A stretch of 64,000 nucleotides of DNA from Betaproteobacteria bacterium. GTDB taxonomy: Bacteria; Pseudomonadota; Gammaproteobacteria; Burkholderiales; SG8-41. Where the stretch lies: positions 4,351 through 68,350 of the forward strand of contig JBKDUF010000048.1 of the NCBI GenBank assembly GCA_046339595.1. Reading direction: 5' to 3'. The position numbers and the translations under genes were made by a program. This document shows, in pieces, positions 27,811 through 30,357 of this stretch (position 1 is its first letter; each line of letters begins with the position of its first letter). The notes below the pieces were generated by a model. It worked only from the letters and a program-made list of their open reading frames with translations. It was not told where the DNA came from and did not search any database.

Positions 27811-30357
<2,547 letters not shown>

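Follow-up and report, generated by a model that had tools for sequence, protein, structure and literature searches.

An in-frame TAA in gyrA of a betaproteobacterial metagenome-assembled genome is very probably a consensus error

The TAA that interrupts gyrA in this metagenome-assembled genome (MAG) is very probably an error in the consensus sequence of the record, the organism itself encoding a full-length GyrA with tyrosine (TAC) at codon 762. Comparison with independently assembled populations of the same species shows a stop that is private to this record and belongs to a clustered, unselected class of transversions, by which other conserved genes are broken as well. The gene lies in a 64,000-nucleotide stretch of DNA, here called the window, taken from a 3.3-Mb MAG of 142 contigs and 98% completeness that represents a freshwater betaproteobacterium of the Burkholderiales. 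In what follows, we describe the reading frame, its counterparts in populations and relatives, the company of private substitutions in which the stop is found, and the explanations that compete with a consensus error.

The gyrA reading frame and its conservation

An in-frame TAA within an otherwise continuous gyrA frame had been noted in a preliminary description, and the window sequence bears this out. The frame runs from an ATG to a terminal TAG (30355-30357) with the TAA as its sole interruption (…CCG GTA GCT GAA TAA ACC CGC CAC GGC CGC GGC…; Table 1), and a GTG at 27802, 5' of the ATG, is likewise in open frame. Upstream lies an OmpA-like gene on the minus strand, while serC, tyrA and aroA follow downstream.

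When the TAA is read through, the product matches the NCBIfam profile NF004043 in one stretch (residues 9-839 against profile positions 3-797 of 798) with 1256.7 bits against a cut-off of 902, and TIGR01063 with 1206.9 bits (cut-off 877), also in one stretch across the stop. The C-terminal domain contains six Pfam DNA_gyraseA_C repeats, the first blade bearing the motif QKRGGRGKQ (RGGRG core at residue 562), which corresponds to the established consensus of the GyrA box. The product thus combines a full-length match with a six-repeat beta-pinwheel that has a GyrA box, the two marks expected of GyrA. What this record lacks is an uninterrupted frame, found in 8/8 populations and 29/29 relatives.

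Based on the repeat pattern and motif positions, the TAA falls early in blade 5 of the beta-pinwheel. A GyrA truncated at codon 762 would be without the acidic tail, the whole of blade 6 and the greater part of blade 5. The preliminary description, which had the 86 downstream codons encode only the last blade and the tail, was therefore right about their conservation (the last 218 residues are 90-95% identical to same-genus GyrA) and wrong about their extent, which includes most of blade 5. Since these codons are contiguous with the rest of the gene in all relatives and the profile match is unbroken across the stop, they are best regarded as part of gyrA and not as a separate gene.

Of the relatives, 20 are other species of the genus and nine belong to other families of the order; their gyrA genes are open frames of 852-891 amino acids. 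All 29 have tyrosine at the codon equivalent to the stop, encoded by TAC in 27 and TAT in two, in agreement with the proposal that the TAA replaces a conserved tyrosine and that a single substitution separates it from TAY. A stop or a split gyrA at the site was found in 0/29, and the same stop with a separate C-terminal open reading frame, envisaged earlier as the sign of a natural split, is thus seen in none of them. The tyrosine and the uninterrupted gene in all 29 relatives rule out a natural split or lineage-wide recoding.

Table 1. Positions of gyrA, its private substitutions and further interrupted genes of the MAG; positions lacking a prefix are those of the window
Feature	Position	Strand	Description
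gyrA (DNA gyrase subunit A)	27811..30357	+	848 codons and terminal TAG; TAA at codon 762
In-frame TAA	30094..30096	+	this assembly only; wild populations TAC (Tyr)
86 gyrA codons 3' of the TAA and true stop	30097..30357	+	rest of blade 5, blade 6, acidic tail ETDEDEE
Companion transversion	30087	+	window GTA, populations GTT (Val, synonymous); 9 nt upstream of 30096
N-terminal gyrA cluster	27819, 27820, 27826	+	synonymous, F->V, K->Q; populations MDSFAKETLP
Blade 2 transversion	29653	+	window AGC (Ser), populations CGC (Arg); R->S in SRASRGKP
mfd (transcription-repair coupling factor)	C45:3495-3497	minus	TAA inside MFD_D3 domain
Aminotran_3 gene (aminotransferase)	C52:25710-25712		TAG within single Pfam domain
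TctA gene (transporter)	C121:3265-3267		TAA or TAG within single Pfam domain
Aldehyde dehydrogenase (Aldedh)	C137:8239-8241		TAA or TAG within single Pfam domain
Cupin (Cupin_2)	C63:9818-9820		TAA or TAG within single Pfam domain
AhpC/TSA gene	C81:5540-5542		in-frame TGA within domain (…FTDT-TGA-TTE…)
CoA-transferase gene	C35:4756-4758		in-frame TGA within domain

The site in independent populations

The same locus was compared with Logan contigs of eight freshwater and lake metagenome runs, each from a different study, with sampling dates from 2017 to 2025. These contigs come from samples other than that of the MAG, whose own reads they do not represent, and agree with the window letter for letter along stretches of hundreds to thousands of bases around the site. 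In runs X1, X2, X6 and X7 (four studies), the match over 29900-30400 is exact except for 30087 A>T and 30096 A>C; X8, X11, X13 and X14, from four further studies, have the same two letters, T at 30087 and C at 30096. Where the window has A at 30096, every covering contig of all eight runs thus has C, giving TAC. The TAA allele was seen in 0/8 runs, as read from Logan contigs, which drop rare variants and may leave a minority TAA allele in these runs unseen. Moreover, a 70-base query around the site, corresponding to just four sampled words, returned no run with TAA-bearing words.

A natural nonsense allele would be expected to occur in independent samples, and this one is absent from the contigs of eight runs and eight studies. 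Given TAC in all eight independent runs, the TAA is almost certainly an error of this one assembly. A base-call or assembly error had been among the explanations first offered, with TAC or TAT at the site named as the observation that would identify it; TAC is what is found, in contigs from other samples rather than in the reads of the MAG.

Two other in-frame stops of the window served as a control of the method, a TGA at 5188 in a DsbA-like gene and a TAA at 21838-21840 (minus strand) in a LAGLIDADG endonuclease gene, both spanned by population contigs with zero differences. With these two stops present in the populations, the comparison evidently separates real from private stops. Like the gyrA stop, each stands alone in an otherwise intact frame and would become a sense codon by the change of one base; unlike them, the gyrA TAA is absent from the populations and interrupts an essential, single-copy gene. 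The region of the TGA (…GTG GTT TGA CCC TGG TGC…, a U-P-W-C motif) shows zero differences in an X2 contig covering 4267-9835 and an X6 contig covering 4267-6305, identifying it as a real stop-type codon; it is probably a selenocysteine codon, the genome having a tRNA-Sec. The endonuclease TAA also occurs in an X2 contig covering 20119-22000 with no differences and, on this comparison, is a genuine pseudogene stop rather than an assembly error.

Private transversions in the window and beyond

Positions 2001-38000 of the window (36 kb) were compared with four runs, a site being called private where every covering run has one and the same letter and the window has another. Of the 14 private sites found, all are transversions, and no indels were seen among the private differences in this interval. 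The probability of 14/14 transversions is (2/3)^14 = 0.003 even if substitutions are random, and 1e-6 if transversions are as frequent as they are among the polymorphisms seen between runs. The sites are also clustered, at 27819/27820/27826, 30087/30096 and 36737/36754/36757; five pairs of neighbours lie 20 nt or less apart, a number never reached in 100,000 random placements (P<1e-5).

Six of the 14 sites fall in gyrA (binomial P=2e-4), where two are synonymous, one is nonsense and three are missense. The T at 30087 rides on the same contigs as the TAC in 8/8 runs. Furthermore, all three missense changes replace residues conserved in the genus: 'FAK', altered at two residues in the N-terminal cluster, is present in 11/11 same-genus relatives in which the motif was located, and the residue encoded at 29653 is arginine in 23/23 relatives with the SRxxRG(K/R)P motif. 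The cluster in aroA amounts to the changes E->A, N->Y and W->G.

With the addition of two 20-kb stretches, C52 and C45, the comparison covers ~76 kb in total. The 19 MAG-private transversions within it comprise two synonymous, 15 missense and two nonsense changes, and the 10 private transitions eight synonymous, two missense and no nonsense changes, a difference in coding effect that is significant (Fisher p=4e-4). Judged by these effects, the private transitions look like ordinary strain polymorphisms filtered by selection, and the private transversions like unselected noise. Some 10 mostly synonymous private transitions in 76 kb also set the MAG strain slightly apart from the eight populations. 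The pattern that marks a consensus error, namely a private change in clustered and unselected company, is thus present, with 17 of 19 transversions damaging versus eight of 10 transitions synonymous. In the regions tested, private transversions, most of them damaging, occur about once per 4 kb.

From population to MAG, the transversions divide into 10 A:T>C:G, three A:T>T:A, four G:C>T:A and two G:C>C:G. Oxidative G>T damage to the library was considered as their main source and rejected, G:C>T:A making up just 4/19.

Other interrupted genes of the MAG

The whole MAG was scanned by codon usage for stops that are flanked on either side by strong coding signal and have no start close by, followed by a Pfam test. 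The clearest case is mfd, in which the MAG has A at C45:3497 and 4/4 runs have C, so that GAA (Glu) in the populations stands against TAA in the MAG; this comparison makes the mfd TAA a second MAG-private nonsense transversion. In the Aminotran_3 gene, the population unitigs end at the TAG, several of them exactly one base before its G, which hints at a mismatch without demonstrating one. Together with the in-domain stops of the TctA, aldehyde dehydrogenase and cupin genes, it is probably a further candidate for a consensus error.

Two genes have an in-frame TGA instead, the CoA-transferase gene and the AhpC/TSA gene (Table 1). The TGA of the latter stands, by eye, at the apparent position of the peroxidatic cysteine and may encode the selenocysteine of a Sec-peroxiredoxin.

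How the errors may have entered the assembly

The best account of these observations would be an overlay of clustered transversions, mostly A:T>C:G, written into the assembly genome-wide. The consensus would then probably have been decided by a small number of short reads rich in errors, or by a wrong path of low coverage through the assembly graph. As to the technical origin, we infer Illumina-type T>G miscalls combined with the path choice of the assembler. For Illumina GAII and HiSeq instruments, substitution errors are reported to be most frequent at T, to favour G as the miscalled base and to occur in clusters (Schirmer et al. 2016, PMC4787001). This profile resembles the one seen here both in its clustering and in T>G, the equivalent of A:T>C:G, which matches 10/19 private transversions. 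It differs in that such errors are normally outvoted by coverage, whereas here they stand in the consensus, and the preference for motifs ending in 'GG' described in PMC4787001 is not obvious in the 14 private-site contexts.

Errors of this kind may favour the neighbourhood of sequence that the organism has in common with other species, the assembly graph being tangled there. The private sites of gyrA adjoin shared segments, recognised at 27874-28407 and 30104-30239 by spikes in depth and by breaks of the unitigs, and we speculate from this position that the assembler took a low-coverage erroneous path through a tangled graph.

The findings also resemble consensus errors of draft and metagenome assemblies in general, in that a single record has the stop, independent data of the same organism and all relatives lack it, and further unselected, damaging substitutions are spread over the genome. 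The assembly errors commonly described, for example in PMC12007338 and PMC8812927, are indels and frameshifts in long-read assemblies; here, by contrast, the errors would be clustered substitutions, all of them transversions in the window, with no indels seen. Two points speak against reading the stop as an error. The contig exceeds 68 kb, which suggests reasonable coverage, and the MAG represents a slightly distinct strain, in which the transversions could in principle be real.

Alternative explanations

The leading alternative, which we consider unlikely, is that the MAG strain did acquire a nonsense mutation very recently and that its truncated GyrA keeps part of its function or is tolerated for a time. 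One version of it invokes a hypermutator clone of the 8-oxo-G or MutT type that piles up unselected, A:T>C:G transversions. Loss of MutT raises A:T>C:G, the class that dominates the private transversions, and the private synonymous transitions of the MAG agree with a strain that is slightly distinct. Independent mutational events, however, would not group in twos and threes within 20 nt (P<1e-5), and gyrA, a single-copy gene, would have acquired four damaging private changes at once. Moreover, the consensus of a MAG represents a whole population, and fixed nonsense codons in gyrA and mfd are hard to square with growth, a problem to which in-domain TAA or TAG stops in at least three further genes add. 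None of the eight populations, sampled over 2017-2025, carries any such allele. A viable truncated GyrA, which the preliminary description had allowed for, is likewise made unlikely by the three private missense changes at conserved residues, as it is by nonsense in other conserved genes.

It is more doubtful still that the MAG captures a bloom of a hypermutator clone with a defect in oxidised-guanine handling, caught in mutational meltdown, in which the gyrA nonsense codon is transiently tolerated, for example through residual activity without blades 5-6 or low-level read-through. The best MutT-like gene of the MAG is an open frame without stops, and its apparent integrity lends a mutator no support yet leaves room for one.

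A chimeric consensus, in which a short stretch of a co-occurring related species or strain was threaded in at conserved gyrA segments, seems highly improbable. Such an event would suit both the concentration of private sites in gyrA (6/14) and their position next to the two segments common to other organisms. The sequence of a real relative, on the other hand, would differ mainly by synonymous transitions and would have neither a stop nor changes at invariant residues, while the private window alleles are all transversions, mostly damaging, and the window alleles occur in no relative.

Means by which the organism could live with the stop were sought in the MAG itself. A second gyrA, or a rescue copy, is rejected: profile-guided whole-genome search and tblastn over the 142 contigs found none besides this locus. 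A suppressor tRNA fares no better, as ARAGORN reports 43 tRNAs over all 142 contigs, one of them tRNA-Sec, and 0/43 with the anticodon UUA. TAA terminates 264 of the 1334 long high-GC3 open reading frames of the MAG and is hence an ordinary stop in this genome, as had been supposed from its neighbours in the window. Among the explanations first put forward, then, an error of base calling or assembly is favoured, and those invoking a second gyrA, a suppressor tRNA or a truncated but viable GyrA find no support.

Programmed recoding, with TAA read as tyrosine through a suppressor tRNA or read-through, and a naturally split gyrA, with the C-terminal 77-86 residues made from their own start at ATG 30124, are together next to negligible: the 86 codons beyond the TAA are perfectly conserved in frame and an ATG lies 10 codons past the stop, but the stop is kept neither in the relatives (20 same-genus species and nine other families, uninterrupted with TAC or TAT) nor in populations of the same species (TAC), UUA is lacking among the anticodons, 264 long open reading frames end in TAA, and a scan found no Shine-Dalgarno-like motif before ATG 30124. 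The uninterrupted genes of the 29 relatives also led us to reject a natural split outright.

A further tRNA reported by ARAGORN has the anticodon ATC beside the normal GTC, and could reflect a base error or a mis-call.

Use of the MAG and strain variation

The gyrA stop is almost certainly not biological; the gyrA of the organism is ordinary and offers nothing new in biology. The practical value of the result is a warning on the base-level quality of this MAG, which represents its species in a one-genome-per-species collection (GTDB 232). The damage includes nonsense codons in gyrA and mfd, with the in-domain TAA or TAG codons of at least three other genes as candidates. In-frame TAA and TAG codons of the MAG, and odd substitutions at conserved residues, should be presumed artefacts until checked against reads. 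In-frame TGA needs separate treatment because the organism has a tRNA-Sec and genuine selenoprotein genes.

With GyrA as query, tblastn over the 142 contigs found no homologue of parC (topoisomerase IV subunit A) at E<1e-5; either the organism lacks the gene or the bin failed to capture it.

Variation of another kind was met in the compared regions. C45:14745-15006 is hypervariable, X2 differing from the MAG at ~25 sites in 260 nt between identical flanks, and has the look of a recombined tract or of a gene segment that varies among strains. Upstream of gyrA, at 27572-27630 of the window, X1 alone has a 12-nt insertion (TCTTGCGCAGGC) after 27572, a 1-nt deletion and five SNPs, which are real strain variation in the ompA-gyrA intergenic region.
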